Below the pieces are notes generated by a model that saw only the letters and a list, made by a program, of their open reading frames with translations, did not search any database and was not told where the DNA came from. Below are positions 4,240-63,829 of a DNA stretch of 64,000 nt, in pieces. Source of the stretch: Schmidtea polychroa (lineage: Eukaryota). Every line of letters starts with the position of its first letter. Position 1 is the stretch's first letter. The position numbers were made by a program, and so were the translations under genes. The stretch spans positions 16,432,001 through 16,496,000 of the forward strand of contig CM097885.1 of the NCBI GenBank assembly GCA_044892525.1, in the 5' to 3' direction.

Positions 4240-36203
<31,964 letters not shown>

Positions 36204-39800: not shown

Positions 39801-41240
39801 AACACTACAAAAACGCCAATCAGTCCGCAGTTCCAAACACGGTTAGCTAACCTGTCGGAATATGATTTTGAACTAAAATATCGGAAAGGCGAAGAACACT
39901 CGAATGCAGATGGACTATCAAGATTAAAAAGTATGATTTGCACCCAGTGTCAAACAAGACATGAAGAAGCTAAGGAAGGAAAATCAATGATTATATATAT
40001 ATATATATATATATATATACTATCCAAAGAACAGAAGCTATGGAAAAAGTATGGGAACAACAACAAAAGGACATTCGGTTTCGAGAGCTGTGAGAGATAT
40101 TGGAAAATGGTTGTACACGGGAGAAAAAGAATTGTTTTCCTTTCAACGTAAAAAAATACACGAATTGATGGAGGATTAATAACAGTAGAAAAGAACAAAA
40201 ATATCTTAATGTTAGTCCCAGAAACATTTGCAGGCCTGTTAACAATAACCCTACATGAAGAACTATGTCACATTGGAGTTAAGAAATTATTTCATTATAT
40301 GGAAAAGATATTTTATTTGCCGAAAATGCAAGAAACAATCCAACTCTGTTTACGATGTTGCGAGATCTGCGCTAAGAGAAAGATCGATCAGACAAGAACC
40401 AAGGAAACATTTATTCCTAGATATAGCTCTGAATTCCTAGAACAGATTGTTATGGATGTGGCTTACATGGAAATGAACGCCATAAAAAATATATGGTAGT
40501 AATGGAGGAGCGTTTTTGCAAACTGATTTCTTTAACTTCAATCACGAAGCAAGACGAAGGGACAATTTTCAAAACAATACTTAATAGTTGGATCTATCGA
40601 TTTCGAAAACCGAAAAGCATTTTAACAGATAGAGACCGAAATTTCGAAGGGAATTTCCTAAGACAGAAGCTACAGAAACTTGGAATCAAACAGGAATTCA
40701 GCTCACCTTACCAGCACCAATCAAATGGTTTAGCCGAACGAGCCAAACGAACGATAAATTTATTATAAGATTATTATATTACAGCAACATTGGCAGATGG
40801 ATGTGAAGAGAGAAAGTGGCACGAATTTCTACCCAGAATAGAGTTCACTATAAATAGTAGTCGACAAAGTGCTACGGGTTTATCACCATTTGAGATAATT
40901 TATGGACGGAGTGTCAACCTACACTTTAACCTGAAACAAGCCGAGATATCAAGAAGCAAAAGAATCGAAGACGCGAGATTTAACTCGAGTAAAGCCGCAG
41001 ACACTATGAGAGCTATGGATAAGACAAAGAGGTGCACTCGTGTTTTCGAGGTGGGAGAGGAGGTACTCGTACGTAAAGAGCCGCAGAACAGGCAGAAGGA
41101 TGGTATGCAATACGATGGCCCATATAAAATGGTCAGATTTCTATCACCTCATCGAGTCGAACTACATTCACTAGAAGGAACGAAAAAAAGAAGAATCGAG
41201 TGGCTGAAAAAGTGGAAAAAGTCTTAAGAAGGGGAGTGTT
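36828..41240 (+). mobile_element. Decayed Ty3/Gypsy LTR retrotransposon (gag-pro-RT-RNaseH-IN)
   Basis: Gag zinc knuckle CLICGKEGHGFRDC; protease LWDSGAS (~38230); RT CVDYRGLN, RLPFGL, YLDD; RNaseH FILDTDAS, RTDHKAL; integrase HEELCHIG/CEIC, TD, SNGLAER. Polypurine tract AAGAAGGGGAG followed by TGTT at 41237. Multiple stops and frameshifts. A matching LTR pair was not found. Confidence 0.95.
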
Positions 41241-43852: not shown

Positions 43853-44188
43853 TATATTCATGAATTTTCGGCACTGCTTTTTCAAGTGATTTAGATTATT
43901 ATGATAATATAATTTAAAATTTAAATTAGTTATTATAATTGTAAAATCAATAATGGATAAATGGCTGAAAGAAGAATCAATTAAAAGAAAGCCAAATGCT
44001 AGCTATAGTACGCTTGACTTGCACATCAATAAAATTATCAACTTAATAATTAAACTTAAAATATATTATTAAATTAATCAAATTAAATTAATTGTTTAAA
44101 TATTCTTTTTATTCATAAACATCATAAACAATTCATGCATCATTCGACATCTCAATCGTTAACTCTCATCAAAATCTATTAAACAAAT

Positions 44189-44545
44189 ATGCCAAAAATT
44201 AGAGAAGCTGAAACCTTTGTTTTTCTAGCTGGGTCACTCTATTCAACTCCAAAGAAATTTTCCTTAAAATACTAATTCACAATTCTAATGATTCTCATGA
44301 TAAAGTTCGTTAAAAGAGCCGGGCTTATCCATCCGTCTTCGATTGCCAAAAAGAGTTAATGATGAAAGTTATTTCAGATAAAGATTTCAATACTTACACA
44401 TCGTACGATATTGGAGTCGATATGCCCAAATGCGAGTTCATAAACAATCGTAGTGCAACCGCCAGATCAGGTACCCATGTTTTCGTGGAAACACTGACTG
44501 CTGCAGCAAATATTTCTATGATCGTTTTTAATGTCATTTTCAATA
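44189..44545 (+). pseudogene. HSP90: HSP90 N-terminal pseudogene fragment (second copy)
   Basis: MPKIREAETFVF..., SKEIFLKILIHNSNDSHDKVR*, YDIGVDMPKCEFINN..TARSGTHVFVETLTAAANISMI, collinear with the HSP90 ATPase domain. Contains a stop and a deletion. Confidence 0.85.
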
Positions 44546-44856
44546 AAAACTTTATGGAAATTAGTTTCTTGTCTCTACACTAGCATTGAATCCTCAAATG
44601 CTGAAACTCCAGAAGCCAGAGTAACTTCATAGAACCCAAAAGAAGATAATGTCACTCAAAACAAGTGTTATTTATAGGCAAATGTTGCAAAATGCATTTT
44701 GGGCTCGGACTCCAGTAGGTAGATAGTGGCCTACGGGAACAATTACCCCCCCCCCCCGGGGGGGGGGGGGGGTTGTTCCCAAATTTTTATTACGCAATTG
44801 TTCCCAACTCATTTTTTTGCTTTCAGGGATTTTTGGTCCAAATTTTTTTTTTATCA

Positions 44857-45375
44857 CACTATAGTGAGAGGGTCTTGATGGTCCTGGGAATTTCTATACA
44901 AAAATCCGACTATCAATAAAAAAGTCAAGGATTATTCACACTATAGTGAGGGGGTCTCGATGGTCCTGGGATTTTCAATACAAAAAATTTTTTCTATACA
45001 AAAATCCGACTACCACTAAAAAAGCCAAGGATTATTCACACTATAGTGAGGGGGTCTCGATGGTCCTGGGATTTTCAATACAAAAAATTTTTTTCAATAC
45101 AAAAATCCGACTACCACTAAAAAAGCCAAGGATTATTCACACTATAGTGAGGGGGTCTCGATGGTCCTGGGATTTTCAATACAAAAATTTTTTTTCAATA
45201 CAAAAATCCGACTACCACTAAAAAAGCCAAGGATTTTTCAGACTATAGTGAGGTGAGTCTCCTTGGTCCTGGGATTTTCAATACGAAAAATTTTTTTCTA
45301 TACAAAAATCCTACTATCAATAAAAAAGCCAAGGATTTATCACGCTATAGTGAGGTGAGTCTCCTTGGTCCTGAG
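44857..45375. repeat. ~100-bp subterminal tandem array
   Basis: CTATAGTGAG recurs at 44859, 44941, 45041, 45142, 45243 and 45345. Fewer mirrored copies at ~61300-61590. Confidence 0.9.
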
Positions 45376-45409
45376 AAATAGGTGGTCTACACTAAAAAAC
45401 GTGGTAAAT

Positions 45410-45975
45410 TTTTCAATTACAGTAAATTACGGTTCAAATTTTTCAATTAAAGTAAATAATGGTTCTAAAAATTAAATTAAAGTTAATTATGGCTCAAATT
45501 TTTCAAATAAGGTAATTATGGTTCTAAAAATTAAATTAAAGTAAATTATGGTTCTAAAATATTAAATTACAGTAAATTATGGTCCAAATTTTTCAATTAA
45601 AGTAAATAATGGTTCTAAAAATTAAATTAAAGTAAATTATGGTTCTAAAATATTAAATTACAGTAAATTATGGTCCAGATTTTTCAATTAAAGTAAATAA
45701 TGGTTCTAAAAATTAAATTAAAGTTAATTATGGCTCAAATTTTTCAATTACAGTAAATAATGGTTCTAAAAATTAAATTAAAGTAAATTAAGGTTCTAAA
45801 AAATTAAATTAAAGTTAATTAAGGTCTAAATTTAAAATTAAGTAATCAATGGTAAAAAATTTTAAATAAGTAATAATTTTTAAATAAGTAAATTAAAGTA
45901 ATAATTTTTAAATAAGTAAATTAAAGTAATGTAATAAGTAAATTAAAGTAATGTAATAAGTAAATTAAAGTAAGA
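45410..45975. repeat. ~29-bp AT-rich tandem array
   Basis: Unit approximately AAATTAAAGTAAATTATGGTTCTAAAAATT; mirrored at ~60590-61280. Confidence 0.88.
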
Positions 45976-46159
45976 TTTTAAAATTTATTAACAAAAAGTT
46001 GAAGGTGTTTGAGAATTGAAATTTTTTAATGAAAATTTTTATGAAATAATTTTTTAAGTTAATTTTATAAGTTAATTTTTAATGGAAATTTTTAAGATAA
46101 TTTTTAATGGAAATTTTTATGAAATATTTTTCAAAGACAAATTTTAATAATAATTCAAC

Positions 46160-48110
46160 AACAAACCACCTACTAAGTACCAACAACCAGTAACTTACGA
46201 ACATGTATTACCAACCAGATACCTACAACCAGATACCTACAACTAGTTACTAACAACTAGTTACATGATACTAAGTAAATACAACCACTTAACAAGTACT
46301 AACAACCAAAAACAAGCAACCAACCAGGTACTAGATACCAAGTACTCACAACCGACAACAACCAAGTACTAAGCATTATTAACCAACATCAACCAGGTAC
46401 TAAGCATTAATTACCAACTACTAAGTACCTACAACCACCTAGCTACCAAGTACCAAGTACTAACAACCAGTTACCAACTACTAAGCATTAATTAACTACA
46501 ACCAGCTAACAGCAACCGACAACAACCAAGTACTAACAACCAAAAACAAGCAACCAACTAGCTACCACCTACCAAGTACCTACAACTAGATACTAACAAC
46601 CAGTTACCAAGTACCTACAACCACCTACCCATTAACTAGCTACCAACTACTAAGTACCAACAACCAACTAGCTACCAGATACCTACAACTAGATACTAAC
46701 AACTAGATACCAAGTACCTACAACCACCTATCCATTAACTAGCTACCAAGTACTAACAACTAGGTCTCAAACAACTAAATACTAACAACCAGTTACCAAC
46801 TACTAAGCATTAATTACCTACAACTAGTTACTAACAACTAGATACCAAGTACTTACAACCAACATCAACCAGGTACTAAGCATCATCAACTAACTACTAA
46901 GTACCTACAACCTACAACTAGTTACTAACAACCAACCAACTAGGTACTAGATACCAAGTACTTACAACCAACATCAACCAGGTACTAAGCATCATCAACT
47001 AACTACTAAGTACCTACAACCTACAACTAGATACTAACAACCAGTTATCTGATACCAAATACTTACAACTAGATACCAAGTACTATCAACCAAAACCAAC
47101 CAACCAACTAGGTACTAGATACCAAGTACTAACAACCAACAACAACCAGGTACTAAGCATTATCAACCAACTAGAGTACCTACTAAGTACCTACAACCAA
47201 CTAACAACCACCTACCAAGTACTAACAACCAGTTACCAACTACTAAGCATTAATTACTAACAACCAGTTACCTGCTATCAAGTACTTACAACAAGATACC
47301 AAGTACTAAGCACTGTCAACTAGATACCAAACACTTACAACTAGATACCACGTACTAACTAACTCTCAAACAACTAGTTACTAACAATCAGTTACCTGCT
47401 ACCAAGCACTCAACCGTCAACAACCAGTTACTAAGCATTATTAACCAACTACTAAGTACCTACAACCACCTACCCATTAACTAGCTACAACCACCTAACA
47501 ACCAATTACCTTCAACTAGTTACTAACAACTAGTTACCTGATAGAAACCAACTAGGTACCAGATACCAAGTACTAACAACCGCCAACAACCAGATACCTA
47601 CAATTAGTTACTAACAACCAAAAACAACCAACCAACCAGTTACCTGATACCAAGTACTAACAACCAGTTACCTTATACCAGATACCTACAACTAGTTACT
47701 AACAACTAGTTACCTGATAGCAACCAACTAGGTACCAGATACCAAGTACTAACAACCGCCAACAACCAGATACCTACAATTAGTTACTAACAACCAAAAA
47801 CAACCAACCAACCAGTTACCTGATACCAAGTACTTACAACCAGTTACCTTATACCAGATACCTACAACTAGTTACTAACAACTAGTTACCTGATAGCAAC
47901 CAACTAGCTACCACCTACCAAGTACTAACAACCAGTTACCAAATACTAAGCATTAATTACCTACAACTAGTTACTAACAACTAGATACCAAGTACATACA
48001 ACCAACATCAACCAGATACTAAGCATTATCAACCAAGTACTAACAACCAAGTAACTTACCAAGTACTAAGCACTGTCAACTAGATACCAAACACTTACAA
48101 CAAGATGACC
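46160..48110. repeat. Strand-skewed mosaic repeat of shuffled short words
   Basis: Words ACCAAGTACT, AACAACC, AGATACC, AGTTAC and TACTAAGCATT in varying order; mirrored at ~58990-60380. Confidence 0.88.
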
Positions 48111-48424
48111 ACATGAAATTAATGGTTAAATATGAAAATAAGGATTATATTTAGTTGTTAAGTAAATAATGGTGTAAAATTAAGAAATAAAGAATAATTA
48201 GGTAAATTAAGGATAAGTAAATTAAAGTTAAAAATTTTAAATTAAAGAAAACAATGGTTCAAAATTTAAAATTAAGTATCCAATGGTTCAAATTTTAAAT
48301 TAAAGCTAAAGTAAGATTTTTAAATTTATTATCAAAAGATTGAATAACCACCAACTTTTTTGAGAAATGTAATTTATAATGAAAATTTAAATGGAAATTT
48401 AAATGGAATAATAATAATAATAAT

Positions 48425-48495
<71 letters not shown>

Positions 48496-48918
48496 TACTA
48501 ATAATTCAACAGTTACCAACAATCGGTTACTGATTATTTTTTAACTAGGTGCTAACAAATACTTACACCATGATACCACGTACTAACTAACTCTCAAACA
48601 ACCAGATACTTACAACTAACTACTAAATATTCTTCACTGTATTTTATGAAATGCTTTTTAAATTAATTTTTTATCTATCTTCAAAAATATATTTAATTAC
48701 AATCATTAGAAAAACCTTTTCAAATTTAACAAAAATGATGATTTTCATCAAAAAACCACAACTCATCACCACGTGGAATTCAAAATAATTACAATGAAAG
48801 ACTAATGAATTCTAATTTACAAAACATTCTTCTTTTAAATGATAACTACTGACTTATTATTGCAAAGTAAAAATCGCATTCAATAAATACTTATTGTTGA
48901 TCAGTTTTATTATATATA

Positions 48919-51900
48919 CTCTGAGTTTATCCGACAGGATGTTTTGACCCCCTAAGGGTACAGGTCGTAAGGGTACTGGTCGTAAGGGTATTAGTCGTAA
49001 GGGTACTAGTCGTAGGGGTATTGGTAACACTCAACCCCCATCTACCCATTAACCACCTAACAAGTACCAACAACCAAGTCTCAAACAACTAAATACTAAA
49101 CACTAACAACTAACAACAACCAGGTACTAGATACCAAGTACTAACAACCTACAACTATATAACAACAATCAGTAAACAACACTGTACCAACTACCAAATA
49201 CAAGAAACCAACAACTTAGTACCAACAATCAACTAACAACACATAAAAATAATAGCAATTAAATAAAAAAAATTATTCTTCATCGCATACACTATTTTCT
49301 TATCAAAATCTAAAAAGTCAACCAACTACTTACAACCAACAACTATGTACTAACAAATTGATCTTTAAAAGCAAATACTCATCACTTGAAAAATTAGATG
49401 GAAAATTATTTGAACTCAAGGCATCAATAACTAGGTAAAATTTGATTAAATTATTGTAAAAATTTAAATTATTCAAAATAAATATCATAAAAATTTAATT
49501 AATGGACAGGAAAAAATTCTAATCATCCAGTAAATAAAAAAAATACTGATCATTCAAGTTGAATCAACTAAGATAATAAATTAATAAAAGTTTTGAAATA
49601 AGATCTAGATTTAGATTGAATAAAATTAATTTTAATTATTTTTGTAAAAGTAATACATGTACTCAAATTGATTGACTGATTTCTCAATATATTCAAAAAA
49701 AATCAGTATAAATTCATTACAATTATCAAAGTCAGCAATCTACAATAAAAATAATTATCATAAAATTCCAAAAGAGACTAGAAAACTAATGATAAAATCT
49801 ATCAAACCAGTAAATTCATTTAAATGACAATAATTGGTATATCCAAGTGAATTCTCTAATAAAATCATCTAAAAAGCATCAAATTTCCCTGAAATATATC
49901 AATATTTAAAGATTAGTATCTTATCGATAAGTACTTGTTAAAGATCATATATTCACCTCAAACTAACAAGATTCCTTAAAATCCCTTAAATGGCTATATT
50001 TCAACCCTTAATTCGTATTATTACAAATATCATCTAAAAAGCATCAAATTTCATTGAAATAACTCTATCCTTAAAGATTGATATTTTAATGACAAGTACC
50101 CTTAAAAGGTTATATATTTACCTCAGACTAATAAGATTGCTTAAAATCCCTTAAATGACTATAATTCTAACTTTAATTCGTATTATCACGAATATTTCCC
50201 TATAAAACATGTAAAATCATTAACCCTAAATAATTTATAAAATCTAATGATAAAACTGGTTATAATTAATTTTTTGTTAATCACTGTACTCGATATTTTA
50301 AATAAATATTACTACAATATAACTGACTAGGTCCCATTGAAAGATTAAATTTATCCATTCAATAAAATATATTTCTTCAAATGATCATTTTTACCAATAT
50401 TCAACCGATTTAATTACTAATTAAAATCAAGATTCCTTCCAATAAAGATCAATTTTATTTAGTCGATGTTTTAAGTCCATATTTCTAAACTTTTGTCATT
50501 CTCCGCCTAAATAAAGATAAAAATAAATTAAAGTTGATATCAATCCCATTTATCTGTAAAGTTTTCATCGTCAAAACCAAGTAAATCGACATTGTTCTAA
50601 AACATAAATCTAAATTCATATATTATTTAAACCAGTAAATTCATTTAAATGACAATAATTGGTATATCCAAGTGAATTCTCTAATAAAATCATCTAAAAA
50701 GCATCAAATTTCCCTGAAATATCTATATCTTTTAAGATTAGTATCTTATCGATAAGTACTTGTTAAAGATCATATATTCACCTCAAACTAACAAGATTCC
50801 TTAAAATCCCTTAAATGGCTATATTTCAACCCTTAATTCGTATTATTACAAATATCATCTAAAAAGCATCAAATTTCATTGAAATAACTCTATCCTTAAA
50901 GATTGATATTTTAATGACAAGTACCCTTAAAAGGTTATATATTTACCTCAGACTAATAAGATTGCTTAAAATCCCTTAAATGACTATAATTCTAACTTTA
51001 ATTCGTATTATCACGAATATTTCCCTATAAAACATGTAAAATCATTAACCCTAAATAATTTATAAAATCTAATGATAAAACTGGTTATAATTAATTTTTT
51101 GTTAATCACTGTACTCGATATTTTAAATAAATATTACTACAATATAACTGACTAGGTCCCATTGAAAGATTAAATTTATCCATTCAATAAAATATATTTC
51201 TTCAAATGATCATTTTTACCAATATTCAACCGATTTAATTACTAATTAAAATCAAGATTTCTTCCAATAAAGATCAATTTTATTTAGTCGATGTTTTAAG
51301 TCCATATTTCTAAACTTTTGTCATTCTCCGTCTAAATAAAGATAAAAATAAATTAAAGTTGATATCAATCCCATTTATCTGTAAAGTTTTCATCGTCAAA
51401 ACCAAGTAAATCGACATTGTTCTAAAACATAAATCTAAATTCATATACAATGAATTAATCACAACCTAATAAAACAATATAATTATTATTGATACATAAC
51501 TGACTAATTGACATTTCCCTTAAAACATTGATATTTTACCAACAGCATACTTAAAAAATCATATATTCCCATCTTAACCCATCTCTCATTAAATTCAATC
51601 GACTATATCCCCCTTACAATGATATATTCCCAACTTATCTGATCTCTCATTAAAATCAATCGACTATATCTCCCTTACAATGATATATTTCCATCTTATC
51701 TGATCTCTCATTAAATCTAACCGACTATATCCCCTTAAAAAATCATATATTCCCACCTTATCTGATCTCTCATTAAATCTAACCGACTATATCCCTTTAA
51801 AAATCATATATTCCCATCTTAACCCATCCCTCATTAAATCTCACCGACAATATCCCATCTTATCCGATCTCTCAGCAAATATTTCTACCCCCCTCATTAA

Positions 51901-53041
51901 ATTTAACCGACAATATCCCATCTTATCCGATCTCTCAGCAAATAATTCTACCCTTTTAAACATCTATCCGATTATATCCCTTATTTTCCCTAAAGATTCC
52001 GCCCACTTGAGCCCTTTAATATATATCAATCCTCTTAAAATCCTCAGAGAAATTCAAAAATATGACTTAATTGTTACAGACACCAAATATTCTTCCATTG
52101 AAATAATTTAGTAGCTATGTAGTAAGAGTTCACTAAAAGATCAAAAATCAATATTTTCTACAAATATTTACCATCAAATACTGGAGATGATATATATTGA
52201 TTGATCATAATTCTTCATCGATTCAGCCAATCATTTTCAAGCAATAACAGCAAACTAAATTTCTTTATATCCTACAATAATTATCACGTAAATTTAAAGT
52301 CATTGATAAAGTTGGTTTCTTAGCTTATGTTTTTTAAAGATCATCAATGTGTAAATATTCTTAGAAAATTATTGAAAAATTATTTATTCAAATATATTAC
52401 AAAGTTATCATCAGAAATTTATTCTATCACTTAATTATTAACCTAATTGTCAATGAAATTAATTTTTATTTAAAAACTATTCAATAAAATACAACTAATT
52501 ATCAAGAAATTAATTAAATTTATCAATTAAATTTATCACCATTAAAACTTTTAATCAGTCAACATGAAATTCTTAGAAAATTATTCAATATCCTCATCAA
52601 AATTTATCCTACCACTTGATTATTGTACAAACTTTAATTATTAACCTCATTAAAAATAAATTTTTATTTAAAATTAAAAAACAAGTCAATAAAAATACAT
52701 TCAATTATCAAGAAATTAATTAAATTTACCTTAGAATTAGCATTAAATTACAGATATTCACAAAAATTACGGAAATTCATGAAAATAATGGAAATTCACA
52801 AAAATAATAGAAATTCACAAAAACGATAAAAATTCACAAAAAAGATAGAAATTTACTTGAATAAAACCATCAACTCTAAAAATTATGAATGCCTTAAACA
52901 TCAAATTTGCCTAAATAATCATTCAAATAAAAACATTAAATACCTTTACGACTAATACCCTTGCGACATGTTGAATGTGAGTAGTACCCTTGTGAGCAAT
53001 ACCCATAGGGGGACAGAATATTTTGTCGGATAAACTCAGAG
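48919..53041. mobile_element. Nested TA-flanked TIR element, left-arm copy
   Basis: TA|CTCTGAGTTTATCCGACA...TGTCGGATAAACTCAGAG|TA; 15-bp subterminal repeats GTCGTAAGGGTA(C/T)TA; no long ORF. Confidence 0.8.
49804..51447. repeat. 825-bp near-identical tandem duplication, left arm only
   Basis: Units start AAACCAGTAAATTCATTTAAATG at 49804 and 50629. The right arm has a single inverted copy at ~56600-57390. Confidence 0.9.
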
Positions 53042-55219
53042 TATATATTAATTAACTCATTTATCATTGAATTAGTCAAATTATCGTAAATTTCGATAAA
53101 AAATCTAAAGTGGTAAGCAATGTAAAGAGAAATATTCTTTAAATTTTGATAAAATTAACAATGAAGGTGGTAAGAATCTTCATTAAAGTGAGGAAATTAT
53201 TCATTACTCGATTCAAATGGGTGAAAATAATTGGTAGAATAATCCATTAATGGAGGTAGATAATGAGAAGTGGCATAGATAAGAAGAAGGTGGATAAGAA
53301 TGGAAGTATATTAATTGAATTTATTTAAAATTATTTCATAAAATTCATAAATTTAATAAAAAAAAACTTTTAAAAGAAATATTTGTGGAGATGTTTTAGG
53401 TGAAAATTAATCAAAATCGGCGGAATATAATTGATTAAATATCGAGGATGGGGGTTATAATCAATGGGATACAAATGATTAAATAGTGGAAAATCCGGGA
53501 ATATAAGTGATTAATTAATGGAATATTGAGAATCGGAGGAATATCAATGAGAAGGATATATAATTTAAACTAGTTTATTACATAACAAGCCGCGACTAGT
53601 TTATTACATAACAAGCCGTGAATGGTATTTTACCAACATTTTTAAAGTATGTAATTTAATTTTAATTTTATTTTTAAATTGTACATATTTTGAATATCAT
53701 TCTATTGTTTAATTTCGATAATAAGTATAAAAAGTCTATAATGATTAATAAATTAATATCTTGTTAACATTTACCAGAGAATTTAAAAAACTTTACTTAA
53801 AATTTAGTGAAGTATTTAATTTTGATTGTACTTTATAAGACATATATTTGAGTATTAACTTATTTTGATTGAAGTATCACATTCAATATTATGATGATTT
53901 TCTTTTTCTAAATTGAAATATTTTAGTGTAAAATAGTTAATTTGATAATAAATAGAATACAATGTTAAAGGACTTTTTGAAAAAAAAGTTAGTTTCTACT
54001 GCCTAATCAATAAGTTTAAAAAGTTTAGAACTGTTAATAAATCAATTTCTTATTCGCATTTACATATAAAATTTTTATTTTTAAATTAAAGTATTAAATT
54101 GATGATTTAATTTTAATTGTATTTGAATGATACATTTAATTTACTTTGATTGAAAGGAGTAATATAATTCATATTATGATATTTGTTTTCGAAATATTTA
54201 GTGTAGAATAGTAAATTTAATAATATATAGCTATTATTACAAGTACTTATACAAAAAAAACACTTTTTATTTCTAATGTTTTATTCCATCAATAAGTTTA
54301 AAAGTATGTAACTGGTAATAGATTAATTTCTTATTTACATTATTCGAGAATTTGAAAAACTTATAAAATTTATATTTTTAAAATTTAATTTTGATTGTAT
54401 TTTCTAAGACTTATATTTGAATATTTAACTTATTTTGAATGAAAAGGGTAATATATATATATTATTATCTTTTATGATAATTATTTTTGAAATACATAAT
54501 GCAAATTAAAACATTTTAGTAATAATTTGCTATTATTTTAGAATTTATTTTAGTCAAAAATTAAAAAAAAGATCTAATCAATAATTCTCAATAAATTATC
54601 ATTCACGGCTTGTTATGTAATAAACTAGTCGCGGCTTGTTATGTAATAAACTAGTCGCGGCTTGTTATGTAATAAACTAGTTTAAATTATATATCCTTCT
54701 CATTGATATTCCTCCGATTCTCAATATTCCATTAATTAATCATTTATATTCCCGGATTTTCCACTATTTAATCATTTGTATCCCATTGATTTTCCATTAA
54801 TTATAACCCCCATCCTCGATATTTAATCAATTATATTCCGCCGATTTTGATTAATTTTCACCTAAAACATCTCCACAAATATTTCTTTTAAAAGTTTTTT
54901 TTTATTAAATTTATGAATTTTATGAAATAATTTTAAATAAATTCAATTAATATACTTCCATTCTTATCCACCTTCTTCTTATCTATGCCACTTCTCATTA
55001 TCTACCTCCATTAATGGATTATTCTACCAATTATTTTCACCCATTTGAATCGAGTAATGAATAATTTCCTCACTTTAATGAAGATTCTTACCACCTTCAT
55101 TGTTAATTTTATCAAAATTTAAAGAATATTTCTCTTTACATTGCTTACCACTTTAGATTTTTTATCGAAATTTACGATAATTTGACTAATTCAATGATAA
55201 ATGAGTTAATTAATATATA

Positions 55220-58191
55220 CTCTGAGTTTATCCGACAAAATATTCTGTCCCCCTATGGGTATTGCTCACAAGGGTACTACTCACATTCAACATGTCGCAA
55301 GGGTATTAGTCGTAAAGGTATTTAATGTTTTTATTTGAATGATTATTTAGGCAAATTTGATGTTTAAGGCATTCATAATTTTTAGAGTTGATGGTTTTAT
55401 TCAAGTAAATTTCTATCTTTTTTGTGAATTTTTATCGTTTTTGTGAATTTCTATTATTTTTGTGAATTTCCATTATTTTCATGAATTTCCGTAATTTTTG
55501 TGAATATCTGTAATTTAATGCTAATTCTAAGGTAAATTTAATTAATTTCTTGATAATTGAATGTATTTTTATTGACTTGTTTTTTAATTTTAAATAAAAA
55601 TTTATTTTTAATGAGGTTAATAATTAAAGTTTGTACAATAATCAAGTGGTAGGATAAATTTTGATGAGGATATTGAATAATTTTCTAAGAATTTCATGTT
55701 GACTGATTAAAAGTTTTAATGGTGATAAATTTAATTGATAAATTTAATTAATTTCTTGATAATTAGTTGTATTTTATTGAATAGTTTTTAAATAAAAATT
55801 AATTTCATTGACAATTAGGTTAATAATTAAGTGATAGAATAAATTTCTGATGATAACTTTGTAATATATTTGAATAAATAATTTTTCAATAATTTTCTAA
55901 GAATATTTACTCATTGATGAACTTTAAAAAACATAAGCTAAGAAACCAGTTAAATTACTTGAAAATGATTGTAGTTTGCTGTTATTGCTTGAAAATGATT
56001 GGTTGAATTGATGAAGAATTATGATCAATCAATATATATCATCTCCAGTGTTTGATGGTAAATATTTGTAGAAAATATTGATTTTTGATCTTTTAGTGAA
56101 CTCTTACTACATAGCTACTAAATTATTTCAATGGAAGAATATTTGGTGTCTATAACAATTAAGTCATATTTTTGAAGTTCTTTAAAGATTTTAAGACTGA
56201 ATTGAATTAAAGGAGGATTCAAGTGGGTAGAATTGAAGGATATATTCGGTTAGATGTTTAAAAGGGTAGAAATATTTGCTGAGAGATCGGATAAGATGGG
56301 ATATTGTCGGTTATTAAATTTAATGAGGGATGGGTTAAGATGGGAATATATGATCTTTTAAGGGGATATAGTCGGTTAGATTTAATGTGAGATGGGTTAA
56401 GATGGGAATATATCATTGTAAGGGGGATATAGTCGGTTGCCTTTAATGAGGGAAGGGTTTCGATGGGAATATATGATTTTTTAAGTATGCTGTTGGTAAA
56501 ATATCAATGTTTTAAGGGAAATGTCAATTAGTCAGTTATGTATCAATAATAATTATATTGTTTTATTAGGTTGTGATTAATGCACAGTAAATTATTTTAG
56601 AACAATGTTTTATTAAGTAGGGATAATGATCGATTTACTTGGTTTTGACGATGAAAACTTTACAGATAATTGGGATTGATATCAGCTTTAAATTATTTTT
56701 ATCTTTATTTAGACGGACAACGACAAAAGTTTAGAAATATTGATTTAAAACATCGACAACTAAATAAAATTGATCTTTATTGGAAGAAATCTTGATTTTA
56801 ATTAGTAATTAAATCGGTTGAATATCGGTAAAATGATCATTTTAAGAAATATATTTTATTGAATGGATAAATTTAATCTTTTAATGGGACCTAGTCAGTT
56901 ATATTTATTTTAAATTTCGAGTACAGTGATTTACAAAAATTTACAGTGATTAACAAAAATTTTATTATAACCGGTTTTGTCATTAGATTTTATAAATTCT
57001 TTAAGGTTAATGATTTTACATGTTTTATAAGGAAATATTCGTGATAATAGGAATTAAAGCAATCTTATTAGTCAGAGGTAAATATATAACCTTTTAAGGA
57101 TATTTATCGATAAAATACTAATCTTTAAAGATATAGTTATTTCAGGGAAATTTGATGCTTTTTAGATGATTTTTGTAATAATACGAATTAAGGGTAGAAA
57201 TATAGTCATTTGAGGGATTTTAAGGAATCTTGTTAGTTCGAGGTGAATATATGATCTTTAACAAGTACTTATCGATAAGATACCAATCTTTAAATATTGA
57301 TATATTTCAGGGAAATTTGATGCTTTTTAGATGATTTTATTAGAGAATTCGCTTGAATATACCAATTATTTAAATGAATTTACTGGTTTGTTAGATGTTA
57401 TCATTAGTTATCTAGTCTCTTTTGGAATTTAATGATAATTATTTTTATTGTAGATTGCTGACTTTGATAATTTTAATGAATTCATACTGATTTTTTGAAT
57501 ATATTGAGGAATTAGTAAATAGATTTGAGTACATGTATTACTTTTAAAAAAAATACTTAAAATAAATTTTATTTCAAATAATTTATTCAATCTAAATCAA
57601 TTATCTACTAGATCTTATCTTATTAATTTATTATCTTAGTTGATTCAACTTGAATGATCAGCATTTTTTTTATTTATTGGATGATTAGAATTTTTTCTTG
57701 TCCATTAATTAAATTTTTATGATATTTATTTCGAATAATTTAAATTTTTTACAATAATTTAATCAATTTTTATCAAGTTATTGATGCCTTGAGTTCAATT
57801 AATTTTCCATCTAATTTTTCAAGTGATGAGTATTTGCTTTTAAAGATCAATTTGTTAGTACATAGTTGTTGGTTGTAAGTAGTTGGTTGTTAGTACTTGG
57901 TACTTGGTAGCAGGTATCTGGTTGTATGTATCTAGTTGTAGGTTGATATTTGTTAATTTCTCGATGGGTTTTGATGGTGGTTGTTAGTACATGGTATCTA
58001 GTTGTTAGCTGATTGATAGTAACTACTTAATGGGTAGGTGGGGATTGAGAGTGATCAATACCCCTACGACTAGTACCTTTACGACCAGTACCCTTACGAC
58101 TAATACCCTTACGACCAGTACCCTTACGACTAGTACCCTTACGACCTGTACCCTTAGGGGGGTCAAAACATCCTGTCGGATAAACTCAGAG
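55220..58191. mobile_element. Nested TA-flanked TIR element, right-arm mirror copy
   Basis: Same 18-bp TIRs at 55220 and 58174-58191, same flanks in inverted orientation. Confidence 0.8.
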
Positions 58192-58604
58192 TATATATAA
58201 TAAAACTGATCAACAATAAGTATTTATTGAATGCGATTTTTACTTTGCAATAATAAGTCAGTAGTTATCAATTAAAAGAAGAATGTTTTGTAAATTAGAA
58301 TTCATTAGTCTTTCATTTAAATTATTTTGAATTCCACGTGGTGATGAGTTGTGGTTTTTTGATGAAAATCAACATTTTTGTTAAATTTGAAAAGGTTTTT
58401 CTAATGATTGTAATTAAATATATTTTTGAAGATAGATAAAAAATTAATTTAAAAAGCATTTCATAAAATACAATAAAGAATATTTAGTAGTTAGTTGTAA
58501 GTATCTGGTTGTTTGAGAGTTAGTTAGTACGTGGTATCATGGTGTAAGTATTTGTTAGCACCTAGTTAAAAAATAATCAGTAACCGATTGTTGGTAACTG
58601 TTGA

Positions 58605-58680
<76 letters not shown>

Positions 58681-61600
58681 CATTTAAATTTCCATTTAAA
58701 TTTACATTATAAATTACATTTCTCAAAAAAGTTGGTGGTTATTCAATCTTTTGATAATAAATTTAAAAATCTTAGTTTAATTTACTTAGTACATTAATTA
58801 TTTAAAAATTATTACTTTAATTTACTTATTTAATTTAAAATTTGAACCTTAATTTACTTTTTTAAAAATTATTACTTTAATTTACCTAATTATTCTTTAT
58901 TTCTTAATTTTACACCATAATTTACTTAACAACTAATTATAACCCTTATTTTCATATTTAACCAATAATTTCATGTGGTCATCTGCTTGTAAGTGCTTGG
59001 TACCTAGTTGACAGTGCTTATTACTAGGTAAGTTACTTGGTTGTTAGTACTTGGTATCTAGTACCTGGTTGATGTTGGTTGTAGGTACTTAGTAGTTGGT
59101 AGCTAGTTGAGTGTTGGTTGTAGCTAGTTAATGGGTAACTAGTTGTTAGTAACTAGTTGTAGGTACTTGGTAGGTGGTAGTTAGTTGTTAGCTGGTTGTT
59201 GTTGGTTGTTAGTACTTGGTTGTTTTGATTGTTAGTACTTGGTAGGTGGTAGTTAGTTGTTAGTACTTAGTAGTTGGTTAATAATGCTTAGTAACTGGTT
59301 GTTGTCGGTTGTAAGTACTTGGTATCTAGTAACTAGTTGTAGGTATCTGGTTGTTAGTAACTAGTTGTAAGTACTTGGTATCAGGTAACTGGTTGGTTGG
59401 TTGTTAGTACTTGGTATTTAGTTGGTTGTAGGTACTTAGTAGTTGGTTGATGTTGGTTGTGAGTGCTTGGTATCTAGTACCTAGTTGGTTGGTTGTTTTT
59501 GGTTGATAGTACTTGGTATCTAGTTGTAAGTATTTGGTATCAGGTAACTGGTTGTTAGTATCTAGTTGTAGGTTGTAGGTACTTAGTAGTTGGTTAATAA
59601 TGCTTAGTAACTGGTTGTTGTCGGTTGTAAGTACTTGGTATCTAGTACCTAGTTGGTTGGTTGTTAGTAACTAGTTGTAAGTATTTGGTAGCAGGTAACT
59701 GGTTGTTAGTATCTAGTTGTAGGTTGTAGGTACTTAGTAGTTAGTTGATGATGCTTAGTACCTGGTTGATGGTGGTTGTAAGTACTTGGTATCTAGTTGT
59801 TAGTAACTAGTTGTAGGTAATTAATGCTTAGTAGTTGGTAACTGGTTGTTAGTATTTAGTTGTTTGAGACCTAGTTGTTAGTACTTGGTAGCTAGTTAAT
59901 GGGTAGGTGGTTGTAGGTACTTGGTATCTAGTTGTTAGTATCTAGTTGTAGGTATCTGGTAGCTAGTTGGTTGTTGGTACTTAGTAGGTGGTATCTGGTA
60001 CCTGGTTGGTTGCTTGTTTTTGGTTGTTAGTACTTGTTAGGTGGTTGTAGGTACTTAGTATCAGGTAACTAGTTGTTAGTAACTAGTTGTAGGTACTTGG
60101 TATCTGGTAATTTGTTGTAGGTACTTGGTTGTTTGAGAGTTATTTAGTACGTGGTATCTAGTTGTAAGTACTTGGTAGGTGGTAGCTAGTTGTTAGCTGG
60201 TTGTAGCTAGTTAATGGGTAGGTGGTTGTTAGTAGTTGGTATCAGGTAACTAGTTGTAGGTATCTAGTTGTAGGTATCTGGTATCAGGTAACTGGTTGTT
60301 AGTAACTAGTTGTAGGTATCTGGTTGTTAATACATGTTCATAAGTTACTGGTTGTTGGTACTAAGTTGTTGGTTTGTTGTTGAATTATTATTAAAATTTG
60401 TCTTTGAAAAATATTTCATAAAAATTTTCATTAAAAATTATCTTAAAAATTTCCATCTAAAATTATCATTGAAAAATATTTCATAAAAATTTCCATTAAA
60501 AATTACTTAAAAAAATTATTCCATAAAAATTTTCATTAAAAAATTTCAATTCTCAAACACCTTCAACTTTTTGTTAATAAATTTTAAAATCTTACTTTAA
60601 TTTACTTATTTAAAATTATTTACCATTGATTACTTAATTTAAAAATTATTACTTTAATTTACTTATTTAAAATTTTTTACCATTGATTACTTAATTTTAA
60701 AATTTGGACCTTAATTTACTGTAATTTAATTTTTAGAACCTAAATTTACTTTAATTTAATTTTTAGAACCATTATTTACTGTAATTTAATTTTTAGACCC
60801 ATAATTTACTGTATTGGAAAAATTTGGACCATTATTTACTTTAATTTAAAATGTTTGACCATAATTTACTTTAATTTAATTTTTAGACCATAATTTACTG
60901 TAATTTAAATTTTTAGAACCATTATTTACTTTAATTTAATTTTTAAGAACCATTAATTACTGTAATTCAAAAATTTGAGCCATAATTTACTGTAATTTAA
61001 TATTTTAGAACCATAATTTACTGTAATTCAATTTTTAGAACCATTATTTACTGTAATTGAAAAATTTGAGCCATAATTTACTGTAATTTAATTTTTTAGA
61101 ACCATTATTTACTGTAATTTAATTTTTTAGGACCATTATTTACTGTAATTGAAAAATTTGGACCATATTTTACTTTTAATTTAATTTTTTTGGACCATTA
61201 TTTACTGTAATTTAATTTTTAGAACCATAATTTACTGTAATTCAATTTTTAGGACTATAATTTACTGTATTTAAAAAATTTACCATGTTTTTTAGTGTAG
61301 ACCACCTTTTTCTCAGGACCAAGGAGACTCACATTAATTTAATTCGAAAAATCCATGCTTTTTTATTGATAGTCGGATTTTTGTATTGAAAATATCCTGA
61401 GACCTTAAATTACCACGTTTTTTTAGTGTAGACCAGCTTTTTGTATTGAAAAATTTTTTTGTATTGAAAATCCCAGGACCATCGAGACCCCCTCACTATA
61501 GTGTGAATAATCCTTGACTTTTTTATTGATAGTCGGATTTTTGTATCGAAATTCCCAGGACCATCAAGACCCTCTCACTATAGTGTGATAAAAAAAAATT

Positions 61601-62246
61601 TGGACCAAAAATCCCTGAAAGCAAAAAAATGAGTTGGGAACAATTGCGTAATAAAAATTTGGGAACAAACCCCCCCCCCCGGGGGGGGGGGGGGTAATTG
61701 TTCCCGTAGGCCACTATCTACCTACTGACTCCGCTTCAGACCCTACAATTCTCATAGCCTAATTGCAAGGGGTCTTCACGTTCACTTTTTGTTTTTGATC
61801 TGATTTTTGGTGATGGTGTGCCAATATTCGATTTTCACACCTGGTGGTACAATAAAAAGGTTTGAAAACCTCGGGTCATTTCCTACTGCTCATATCCTTC
61901 CTGTTTTCCTAAGAAATATTGAATTTTGAACTTTTGATATTTTAATTAAATTTAGTTTTATTGGATTCTAATTAATTTTGCACCGGATTTCTTGTGCAAT
62001 TGAATGATATTTGCACTCATTTACATATTCCAGACGCCCCCCCCATATTTTTTATAATTGATTAATTAATATACATTTTAAATATTATTCTATAGAAAAC
62101 AGACAAAGGAAAAACAAAACCATCTCAAAATTGAAAATGAAATTTACAGTTACTTTGAATCTATTTTATTAATAAAACTTTTTATTAGTTATATATATAT
62201 ATATTGATTTTCATAAATATAACTGGCTAATTTATGAGCTTAATTA

Positions 62247-62360: not shown

Positions 62361-62482
62361 AAAGAATCCGACCTTTGACTGCAATTATCATCGATTATTT
62401 CATTCAGTATCCTTCATAGTTTAATGCAATTAAATTACTTTTAAATTACAATTGTATTACTTTTTAATTATATCATAATTTA

Positions 62483-63829
62483 ATGTCAGAATATTTATTT
62501 ATTTATGACCACAATTTACTTGATGGTAAAGAAGACTCAAATTATGATCCAGCTGATGCAATTTTATACTTTTATCCAACAACTACTTCAGTTGATTACC
62601 AACATTCTTTATGTTCTCATGTCATGGGATTTTGTCAGATTTTATCGAACATTCTCAAGTCTCCTCCAAAATCATTCACTCTCGAAGGCGGTGCTCGAAT
62701 TGCATGTGTCCATGAACCATATTTTGGATTGATTCAAAAATCTCGATCACGAGTTCTTACATTTGCATTGTATTCAGATTCATCTTCATCGACTCATCTC
62801 CATGAGAAGTGCGTATTAATTTATGAATCATTTATATTTTATATGAAAAAGTGTTTGGCATGTGTATTTAAAAAAGGTAAATCGAAATCTAATTACTTAG
62901 GAAATGTAGTTGAAAGATTAATGAATTTGATCAATCATCGTGATAAATTATCATTAATTTTTAATGCTTCACTTTATTGTGATCACGATCGAAAGGGTTC
63001 GACGCCTATTGATTCATTTTTATACCAAACAATGATCAATACTGTTGATTCTATGTGCAATCAGTCGGAAACCATGGATGTTTCCATTTTAGGAAGTTGT
63101 TTTTTCTATAAAAGGAATTTAATTTTAAATCAGTTTTCGGTGAATGTTTCAAATCTATTTAGTCTTCTAATCGACTGCATAAACAGTGATACCGATAAAA
63201 CTGGAAAAGAGATTTTTGGATTGATTAAGCGAATCCAAATTGACACCAACGAATTGCATGCAAGAGACGGCGTATTTTTATTTCAAGTCTGTGTAACAAA
63301 TAAAAGATACCAAGAATTGATTTCCACTGCCCAAAGTACTTCCAAGTTAGATAAAAAGAATTGTTGTGACAATGTTGATTTTCAATATATTCACTTGTAT
63401 CTTGAGCATCATTCGAACACAACAATAATCACATTGATTGATGAACCAGATCTGCAAAAAATCAATAAGGAACTTCTAAAAACATTCGGTAATTTATGTT
63501 TCAACGTCCTCGGTGTCATTGAAGCGCACATGGCGACCACTAAAACCAAATTGGAAGATAGATCTGACCGATTGATGAGCAGTTCTGTAAATTTGTGGAA
63601 TATTACATACGATGAAATCGACCATTCTATCAGTAAAACGAACAGTATAAATGGTACAAATATCCCCGCAGATTGGGAGGAATGGTTAATAAAAAGAGCA
63701 GATGTCCTTCATTCAAACATGGAGAAAGAAGAAACAATTAAAGAAATTCATATCAAAGTAAAGAAAGAAACTTTATCTACAGTTAGATTCGGGAATCAGC
63801 AGATTTATACGATGAAATCAACTAATTGA
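62483..63829 (+). CDS. HPS4: HPS4-like (CCZ1/INTU/HPS4 longin-domain) BLOC-3 subunit, single 448-aa ORF
   Basis: N-terminus YLFIYD...DP..AILYFYP.......Q..LC...MG....S.I...PP matches my recollection of the first longin domain of HPS4; ILGSCFFYK is consistent with the second longin domain. Uninterrupted ORF. Confidence 0.75.
   Translation: MSEYLFIYDHNLLDGKEDSNYDPADAILYFYPTTTSVDYQHSLCSHVMGFCQILSNILKSPPKSFTLEGGARIACVHEPYFGLIQKSRSRVLTFALYSDSSSSTHLHEKCVLIYESFIFYMKKCLACVFKKGKSKSNYLGNVVERLMNLINHRDKLSLIFNASLYCDHDRKGSTPIDSFLYQTMINTVDSMCNQSETMDVSILGSCFFYKRNLILNQFSVNVSNLFSLLIDCINSDTDKTGKEIFGLIKRIQIDTNELHARDGVFLFQVCVTNKRYQELISTAQSTSKLDKKNCCDNVDFQYIHLYLEHHSNTTIITLIDEPDLQKINKELLKTFGNLCFNVLGVIEAHMATTKTKLEDRSDRLMSSSVNLWNITYDEIDHSISKTNSINGTNIPADWEEWLIKRADVLHSNMEKEETIKEIHIKVKKETLSTVRFGNQQIYTMKSTN

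Follow-up and report, generated by a model that had tools for sequence, protein, structure and literature searches.

What kind of element fills 17 kb of chromosome with Polinton (Maverick) ends and no genes, how does it move, and what sets its length? The question is raised by a palindrome in the window analysed here, a 64,000-nucleotide stretch of Schmidtea polychroa DNA (assembly GCA_044892525.1, contig CM097885.1, positions 16,432,001 to 16,496,000). From sequence comparison we consider it highly probable (roughly 85%) that it represents a young member of a high-copy family of gene-less palindromes, likely replicated and inserted in trans by a capsid-encoding Polinton family that shares its terminal 1.4 kb.

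The element, its copies and their probable helper

A first-pass annotation of the window had placed the element at 44714-61726 (17,013 bp), with GACTCC directly flanking it on both sides as a 6-bp target-site duplication, and with two inverted arms around a 975-bp spacer; all of this proved exact on re-checking (Table 1). The element starts with AGTAGGTAG and ends with CTACCTACT, termini identical to those of coding copies, and these form AG...CT ends with a short terminal repeat that is a variant of the (AGT)2 motif. The arms are in register up to 53624 and from 54600 on, and the left (8.9 kb) is longer than the right (7.1 kb) because of repeat arrays and an 825-bp tandem duplication. Aligned with each other, they are 96% identical in the first 310 bp, drop to 71-88% in the blocks midway along and recover to 93% in the inner 1.9 kb. 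That the arms are not near-identical had not been remarked upon in the first-pass annotation.

Table 1. Features of the gene-less palindrome in window coordinates.
Feature	Position	Strand	Remarks
Left copy of target-site duplication GACTCC	44708..44713	.	6 bp
Whole gene-less palindromic element	44714..61726	.	17,013 bp
Left outer end, common to coding Polinton TIR	44714..46143	+	alignment with coding copies
C-run/G-run hairpin in left outer end	44735-44780		
101-bp repeats in left outer end	44891-45373		
30-bp repeats in left outer end	45415-45867		
Left-arm filler, degenerate short-period tandem repeats	46156..48111	+	length about twofold variable among copies
Second, shorter, inverted copy of the block resembling family-2 helper TIR	48891..48977	+	
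15-bp repeat array, entered by the preceding block	48953-49020		
Tandem duplication of ~825 bp, 99.1%	49804..51447	+	left arm only
Non-coding core common to gene-less palindromes of second Polinton family	52010..53384	+	
Block 83-91% like inner end of family-2 helper TIR, absent from family-1 helpers	52912..53054	+	
26-bp repeats, inner end of left arm	53569..53624	+	
Non-palindromic AT-rich 975-bp spacer, conserved between copies	53625..54599	.	
26-bp repeats, inner end of right arm	54600..54681	-	
Right-arm copy of shared non-coding core	54877..56251	-	approximate coordinates, from symmetry
Right-arm filler, degenerate tandem repeats	58976..60382	-	
Right outer end, common to coding Polinton TIR	60384..61726	-	
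Right copy of target-site duplication GACTCC	61727..61732	.	6 bp

The claim that the element is gene-less also held: it contains no ORF of at least 150 aa, and 20 overlapping frames, 60-135 aa long, mostly read through repeats. pPolB, integrase, ATPase, protease and capsid proteins, the gene set of an autonomous Polinton, are all absent. Hidden genes or RNAs were rejected, as there is neither a long ORF nor an Rfam match at E<=0.5 in the element, and the lengths of most indels in the shared core are not divisible by three.

The exact terminal 33-mer has 342 matches in the genome (1,353 including sister variants) and its reversed control none, so the matches are not due to chance. For a census of copies, the first 100 matches of the exact 33-bp end on one chromosome were combined into 40 pairs, 39 of which were examined; these comprised 25 gene-less palindromes, 10 conventional coding Polintons, 3 coding palindromes and 1 TIR-only copy. 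A true 6-bp duplication flanks 33 of the 38 copies fetched. The census thus supplied what the first-pass annotation had recommended looking for, namely same-ended copies encoding pPolB, integrase and a capsid (by predicted fold) and 6-bp duplications around paired ends. Among the 39 copies from this chromosome we found neither a long ORF foreign to the set of Polinton genes nor a cognate non-Polinton transposase between the same ends. A filler marker present twice per element has 2,204 matches genome-wide, equivalent to ~1,100 elements, and the helper capsid gene 231, so that gene-free palindromes would outnumber their helper about five to one. A 22-mer with 2,714 matches was rejected as a copy count, since it also occurs in family-2 elements and their helper TIR. 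Likewise, the 26-bp centre motif (327 occurrences) does not mark a nested MITE: at 20 of 20 sampled loci it lies in the same palindromic body, with plan and spacer conserved.

The putative helper (family 1) encodes pPolB, integrase, an A32 ATPase, an adenovirus-type protease, protein X and a 408-aa capsid candidate. By sequence, the latter has no match to solved structures or Pfam, and its predicted double-jelly-roll fold (pLDDT 93) matches the capsids of PBCV-1, iridovirus and mavirus at E about 1e-13 to 1e-15. With pPolB, integrase, ATPase, protease, a TIR, a 6-bp duplication and the predicted capsid, it has the features of an autonomous Polinton. The outer end of the element is like the coding TIR in 95.5-99.1% of aligned columns over ~1.3-1.4 kb, and in more than 99% over the first 300 bp; it is likely to act as replication origin and integrase-binding end. 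The element has the ends and duplication of the helper at many dispersed sites and no mobility genes, as a non-autonomous derivative does. Mobilisation in trans by the helper appears well supported by the shared ends and the duplication length, in agreement with the earlier proposal of a Polinton-dependent element inserted as one unit.

The genome also contains a second family of gene-less palindromes (family 2), with 580 termini; its Polinton ends differ, it has a helper of its own, and its non-coding core is homologous to that of family 1. Among 24 fetched pairs, 15 were gene-less palindromes, all 15 with 6-bp duplications, 5 were complete coding Polintons, whose pPolB is ~60% identical in protein to that of family 1, and one was a chimera of satellite core and capsid genes.

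In an empty-site test of the left flank, a 534-nt contig from two runs of one study reaches 44713 and continues with 451 letters that were not aligned to the element, and in two runs of another study a contig stops at 44713. At this left junction, the contigs would be compatible with an insertion that elsewhere is polymorphic or missing. No RNA dataset was listed as carrying the searched flank stretch.

Length and the packaging question

The gene-less palindromes have a median length of 16.9 kb (25 copies) versus 17.6 kb for conventional Polintons (10 copies), which corresponds to 96% of helper length in family 1; in family 2 the ratio is 87%. They are slightly shorter than the helpers (p 0.02 after exclusion of the two longest gene-less copies). 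The first-pass annotation had proposed, as speculation, that helper-like length would fit a capsid-packaging constraint, as in defective-interfering genomes. Adenovirus genomes shorter or longer than 75-105% of wild-type length undergo rearrangement towards it (available part of PMC9863843). In line with this idea, 21 of 25 family-1 gene-less copies lie within 75-105% of helper length; however, tests for length compensation between modules gave no significant result (p 0.06-0.09), and some copies flanked by a TSD measure just 1.4, 10.1 and 11.7 kb. Left and right arms do not compensate for each other (r -0.07, n 13), and fold-backs with pPolB arms range from 7.4 to 18.1 kb. That filler is kept because the helper capsid packages near-helper-length DNA only is a speculative proposal, to which we assign somewhat less than an even chance.

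At even odds, in our judgement, the same trans-mobilised element merely inherited its length from its founder, with no capsid involved and with replication and integration taking place inside the nucleus. Consistent with this, the SD of arm length (403-421 bp) is near the 476-495 bp that repeats varying independently would be expected to give, both short and long copies occur between TSDs, the family-2 ratio is 87% and not ~100%, and Maverick particles have not been observed according to Barreat and Katzourakis (available part of PMC8097293). On the other hand, the 40 pairs with the exact end include a single one shorter than 10 kb despite direct repeats throughout the interior, the short copies examined are each differently built, and the gene-less median falls within 75-105% of the helper in both families, with both medians lower in family 2. 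The element bears on whether animal Polintons form particles and on how they replicate, and a gene-less passenger that keeps close to the length of its helper, and does so in both families of this genome, offers a direct test of packaging: if packaging sets size, gene-less DNA is expected in natural particles.

Arm haplotypes and a possible replication route

In 15 of 19 copies, the inner segments of a copy's own two arms share 99.4% identity or more, as against a median of 94.7% between copies. Arms match in all seven segments in 7 of 23 copies. Thirteen copies combine matching with differing segments, and in 11 of these the differences lie solely outside a single switch point; the usual pattern is identity from the centre outward, followed by a haplotype switch. 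In a mid-arm segment of the window copy, the left arm matches one other copy at 100% and the right arm a different one at 99.5%. As judged from these matches, it is a young mosaic of two arm haplotypes, in line with the recent insertion suggested previously. Divergence between its arms was rejected as a sign of age, since either arm can be matched almost exactly to another copy.

The centre-outward identity would represent a sequence record of a replication intermediate. We propose that a linear copy, excised or released, is copied from both ends by strand displacement with the protein-primed polymerase of the helper. Being self-complementary, each strand would snap back on itself once displaced, giving an 8-kb hairpin with a double-stranded origin restored at its open end. 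Copies that replicate together would exchange the outer part of one arm through crossovers or template switches, fold-back copying would return both arms to identity, and the helper integrase would insert the product with a 6-bp duplication. The same recombination between a gene-less element and a helper could swap ends and so pass the core between helper families, with transfer out of the family-2 lineage into family 1 as the likeliest direction.

Alternatively, arm-to-arm conversion within the chromosome created or homogenised the palindromes once they had been inserted, or the assembler made them; the moving form then need not fold back. Three of the 38 fetched copies have mirror-image flanks and a fourth was seen separately, and marker and terminus positions suggest a 36-kb palindrome with duplicated nested elements; arm identity within a copy may partly reflect assembly, polishing or chromosomal gene conversion. 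As a general explanation this is nevertheless unlikely, given that the same plan and spacer recur at all sampled centre-motif loci, that 15 family-2 copies share the plan, and that arm haplotypes are near-exactly common to different loci. In the case of the window copy, its unlike flanks, intact duplication and arms of two haplotypes led us to reject a fold-back artefact of assembly.

A shared core and the origin of the interior

The element and the family-1 helper have only the outer 1.4 kb of each 7-9 kb arm in common, and beyond this TIR the interior has no nucleotide match to family-1 helpers, with translated hits of low score only. The core shared with family 2 is 67-71% identical with gaps counted (85.8% of 1,051 aligned columns), and helper genes are 65-80% identical between families. 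A homologous core under different ends suggests helper switching by the gene-less element; since the core, gaps counted, is no more conserved than helper genes, it is also possible that it diverged together with the helpers.

These data bear on whether the element is a plain defective derivative of a resident helper, by snap-back or deletion, with genes decayed into filler. Although the ends are shared and the genome does contain true fold-backs of the coding element, this reading is largely refuted and most improbable: the interior is unmatched, the core is common to the gene-less element of another family, and helper copies are ~99-100% alike in most genes, which makes decay of the element from them impossible. 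The earlier designation as a snap-back parasite of a Polinton accordingly stands for the Polinton-dependent palindrome and not for the interior, which is related to the family-2 gene-less element. Defective AAV genomes with an inverted 'snapback' configuration are helper-dependent (available part of PMC8235507), and the element resembles them as an inverted duplication with the origin at both ends. Unlike these and helper-dependent adenovirus genomes, which are transient and derive from the helper's own genes, it is a heritable integrated lineage, and its body does not come from the helper genome. On adenovirus genomes without genes, a search of PMC3185507 yielded no usable statement.

Foldback transposons such as Drosophila FB and Galileo also have long inverted arms of tandem repeats, and they are a few kb long with cut-and-paste transposases and longer duplications. 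Movement of our element by an ordinary DDE transposase in this manner is extremely improbable despite the similar arms, in view of its coding-Polinton ends, its 6-bp duplication and the gene content of the 39 copies. Non-autonomous zebrafish Polintons were reportedly described by Kapitonov and Jurka in 2006.

Intact vertebrate Polintons, also called polintoviruses or adintoviruses, measure 12.7-24.6 kb in the available parts of PMC8097293 and PMC3014272. The element resembles them in 6-bp duplication, AG...CT ends and length, but it has no genes, its arms far exceed their TIRs (46-1,447 bp; tens of bp to ~1.5 kb for autonomous Polintons in general), its end reads AGTAGG and not (AGT)2 or (AG)3, and its copies number ~1,100 against a reported median of 8 (same sources). 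Insect polintons lacking pPolB remain mobile and, unlike the element, keep capsid genes and have 2-kb TIRs (available part of 10.1101/2025.02.07.637071). The name Polinton-1N1 is in print (available part of PMC9341505). Palindromic gene-less Polintons are not described in the available parts of PMC6431247, 10.1101/2024.01.15.575659, PMC5499653 and PMC4028283, nor did we find such a satellite in the literature searched.

In sharing little beyond the origin with its helper, the preferred trans-mobilised element is like the alpha-, beta- and deltasatellites of begomoviruses, among which deltasatellites lack coding sequence, A-rich regions are believed to fill the molecule up to a set size, and helper-satellite chimeras occur (available part of PMC12193555). 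These differ as non-integrated, non-palindromic circular ssDNAs of 0.7-1.3 kb that replicate by rolling circle. It is conceivable, if doubtful, that animal Polintons have heritable non-coding satellites of this kind, a long-lived hairpin-genome lineage with a cis-acting core that captures the ends of the active family, is padded with repeats to fit the helper capsid and reaches about five copies per helper. If so, element length would be indirect evidence that Polintons move through particles. Should most of the ~1,100 family-1 and 880 family-2 marker pairs be full length, these palindromes would occupy up to ~30 Mb (4% of the genome); as many marker pairs are fragments, this figure is a ceiling. 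Giant inverted repeats of such elements escape gene-based repeat searches.

Structure, copies and coding relatives

The window element starts with AGTAGGTAG and ends with CTACCTACT, has one copy of GACTCC on each side, and its arms keep register up to 53624 and again from 54600, leaving a 975-bp spacer. In agreement with the first-pass annotation, these boundaries, the duplication and the spacer were re-found in the window sequence, and the element is gene-less, with no ORF of at least 150 aa inside it. An Rfam search of the element gave no match. The two arms are 96% identical in the first 310 bp, 71–88% in the middle blocks and 93% in the inner 1.9 kb; tandem repeats form a large share of the interior, and the first 117 nt fold far more strongly than shuffled sequences (z -4.4) through a C-run/G-run hairpin.

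Positions of features in the window and at loci fetched elsewhere in the genome
Feature	Position	Remarks
Retroelement remnant with reverse transcriptase	window 4798-7232	
Retroelement remnant with reverse transcriptase	window 38737-41227	
Separate high-copy repeat immediately left of the insertion site	window 44035-44579	read depth and loose ends
Gene-less palindromic element	window 44714-61726	
Non-coding core	window 52010-53384	
453-aa frame with longin domain (INTU/CCZ1/HPS4 family)	window 62468-63829	~740 bp to the right of the element; probable exon of a host gene
Helper TATA-binding-protein-like (TBP-like) ORF and, in many copies, RING-finger ORF	L059:2246-2758, L060:88-1233	TBP-like ORF: PF00352, E 5e-16; also in family 2
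Family-1 integrase	L059:3976-5136	split over two frames (172 + 207 aa) in the examined conventional coding copies
pPolB-arm palindrome	L145:7993-9995 and L146	inner arms with core-like DNA (660 bp, 74%) and, internally, a TIR-like stretch

In the 781-Mb genome we counted 342 exact copies of the terminal 33-mer (control, 0); among the first 100 places listed, the ends form 40 convergent pairs and 20 are unpaired. Leaving out one 36.6-kb pair, the sample comprised 39 pairs (the window element and 38 fetched): 25 gene-less bodies resembling that of the window element, ten conventional coding elements, as sought in the proposed check for same-ended copies with pPolB, integrase or capsid genes, three coding palindromes and one TIR-only copy. 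Of the 38 fetched copies, 34 scored for the expected 6-bp duplication and 33 are counted as true, one having mirror-image flanks; of the other four, one has three extra bases ahead of the duplication, one lacks it and two have mirrored flanks. Copies whose flanks mirror each other (L077/L078, L099/L100, L173-L175 and L135/L136) are either fold-backs made in assembly or genuine inverted duplications for which the palindrome was the seed. A filler marker, with a single occurrence in each of 45 out of 46 arms, occurs 2,204 times (~1,100 elements or fragments), and a capsid-gene marker 231 times. Sister variants of the family-1 end are found on many copies, and family-1 elements have also inserted into filler belonging to other gene-less copies (L041/L042, L085/L086, L013). 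The palindrome at L191/L192 (7.6 kb, third end variant, 6-bp duplication) has only the short TIR-like block in common with the window element; a similar end lies beside capsid and protease genes at L200.

Family-1 coding elements encode pPolB, an integrase with chromodomain, an A32-type ATPase, an adenovirus-type protease, a protein-X-like ORF and a 408-aa predicted double-jelly-roll capsid, whose model (111 sequences, pLDDT 93) matches capsids of PBCV-1, an iridovirus and mavirus. A RING-finger ORF occurs in many helper copies. Fold-back coding Polintons (L093/L094, L141-L150, L161-L166 group) carry on both arms either pPolB (six loci, 7.4–18.1 kb, one of them belonging to a more distant Polinton family) or the capsid module (22.6 and 26.7 kb).

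The outer 1.4 kb of the window element matches the helper TIR in 95.5–99.1% of aligned columns, whereas the interior past it has no match of at least 50 bits to any conventional family-1 copy (44 loci compared). Without genes it is not an autonomous Polinton, and with an interior not derived from the helper it is not a strict defective-interfering genome. The proposed non-autonomous Polinton parasite is retained on sequence features, and a simple snap-back origin from the helper genome is not supported; by analogy, its way of working would be most like that of a viral DNA satellite. The features of intact Mavericks used for comparison come from PMC8097293 and PMC3014272. Polintons that lack pPolB and stay mobile have been described (10.1101/2025.02.07.637071), and the name Polinton-1N1 has been published (PMC9341505). 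Titles and abstract openings of the Polinton literature searched mention neither helper-length gene-less palindromic Polintons nor helper switching.

A core common to two gene-less families

An interior marker was traced to palindromes whose Polinton-type end differs from that of family 1 (family 2, 580 termini). We fetched 24 of the 33 pairs among the first 100 places listed, a sample leaning to middle lengths, since among the other nine are the five shortest pairs (5.3–8.9 kb) and two of 32 kb. It contained 15 gene-less palindromes, all with a 6-bp duplication, five complete coding Polintons (pPolB protein identity to family 1, ~60%), three elements with capsid genes without pPolB, and one with other ORFs. 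The family-2 marker was counted 1,768 times, against 571 for the capsid gene. The family-2 integrase is a single frame of 376–377 aa. One locus with family-2 ends and no duplication (L217/L218) has long ORFs with matches to a family of viral fusion glycoproteins and to a protease of retroviral type.

The two gene-less families have no TIR in common. Their non-coding core is shared, at 67–71% identity when gaps are counted and 85.8% over 1,051 aligned columns, figures that AT-rich alignment inflates; shuffled controls aligned at most 29 columns. Helper genes of the two families are 65–80% alike by blastn and 71–74% by aligned columns. A block in the window's core resembles, at 83–91%, the inner end of the TIR of family-2 helpers; it was not found in family-1 helpers. 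At L223/L224, a family-2 element of 14.2 kb flanked by a 6-bp duplication has the gene-less core linked to genes for capsid, integrase and ATPase, without pPolB, and on its sequence is a helper–satellite chimera. The simplest reading, to which we give a probability of about 0.6, is that one gene-less lineage switched helper through capture of new ends; the rival is co-divergence of the gene-less families and their helpers, with cis-elements conserved.

Element length and packaging

Packaging by the helper capsid is a possible but rather doubtful reason for the length of gene-less elements. Family-1 medians are 16,945 bp (gene-less, n=25) and 17,580 bp (helper, n=10); 21 of the 25 gene-less copies fall within 75–105% of helper length, a range taken from adenovirus (PMC9863843), and 19 within 90–105%. 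Family-2 medians, worked out by hand from the fetched pairs, are 14,066 bp (n=15) and 16,095 bp (n=5), a ratio of 87%. Both medians are lower in family 2, the direction packaging would predict, although two families are no test. Against packaging, compensation between module lengths is only weak (p 0.06–0.09), left and right arms do not compensate (r -0.07), and there are TSD-flanked copies as short as 1.4, 10.1 and 11.7 kb; short pairs are commoner among sister ends.

Mosaic arms and age of the insertion

Next to the centre, 15 of 19 copies have two arms that agree at 99.4% or more, against a median of 94.7% between copies. In the mid-arm segment the arms match in 15 of 21 copies, and in the other six each arm is closely matched in another copy. 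The window copy is one of these, its left arm being 100% like one copy and its right arm 99.5% like another, so its arm difference reflects mosaicism, and these near-exact matches rule out arm divergence as a measure of its age. Across seven segments in 23 copies, seven match throughout (one with mirrored flanks), 13 are mixed and three uninformative; the arms of 11 mixed copies differ only outside a single switch point. In some copies that match throughout, the arms are in turn mosaic for other haplotypes, implying that recombination came first and that one arm was then copied anew onto its partner. The pattern, read from assembled sequence, would be expected if linear palindromic molecules underwent single crossovers and occasional fold-back copying; chromosomal conversion or assembly effects could contribute.

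Near-exact arm matches between loci, together with the intact duplication, point to a young insertion, as had been suggested. In one other study, contigs follow the window up to 44713 and diverge right there, as they would at a possible empty site.
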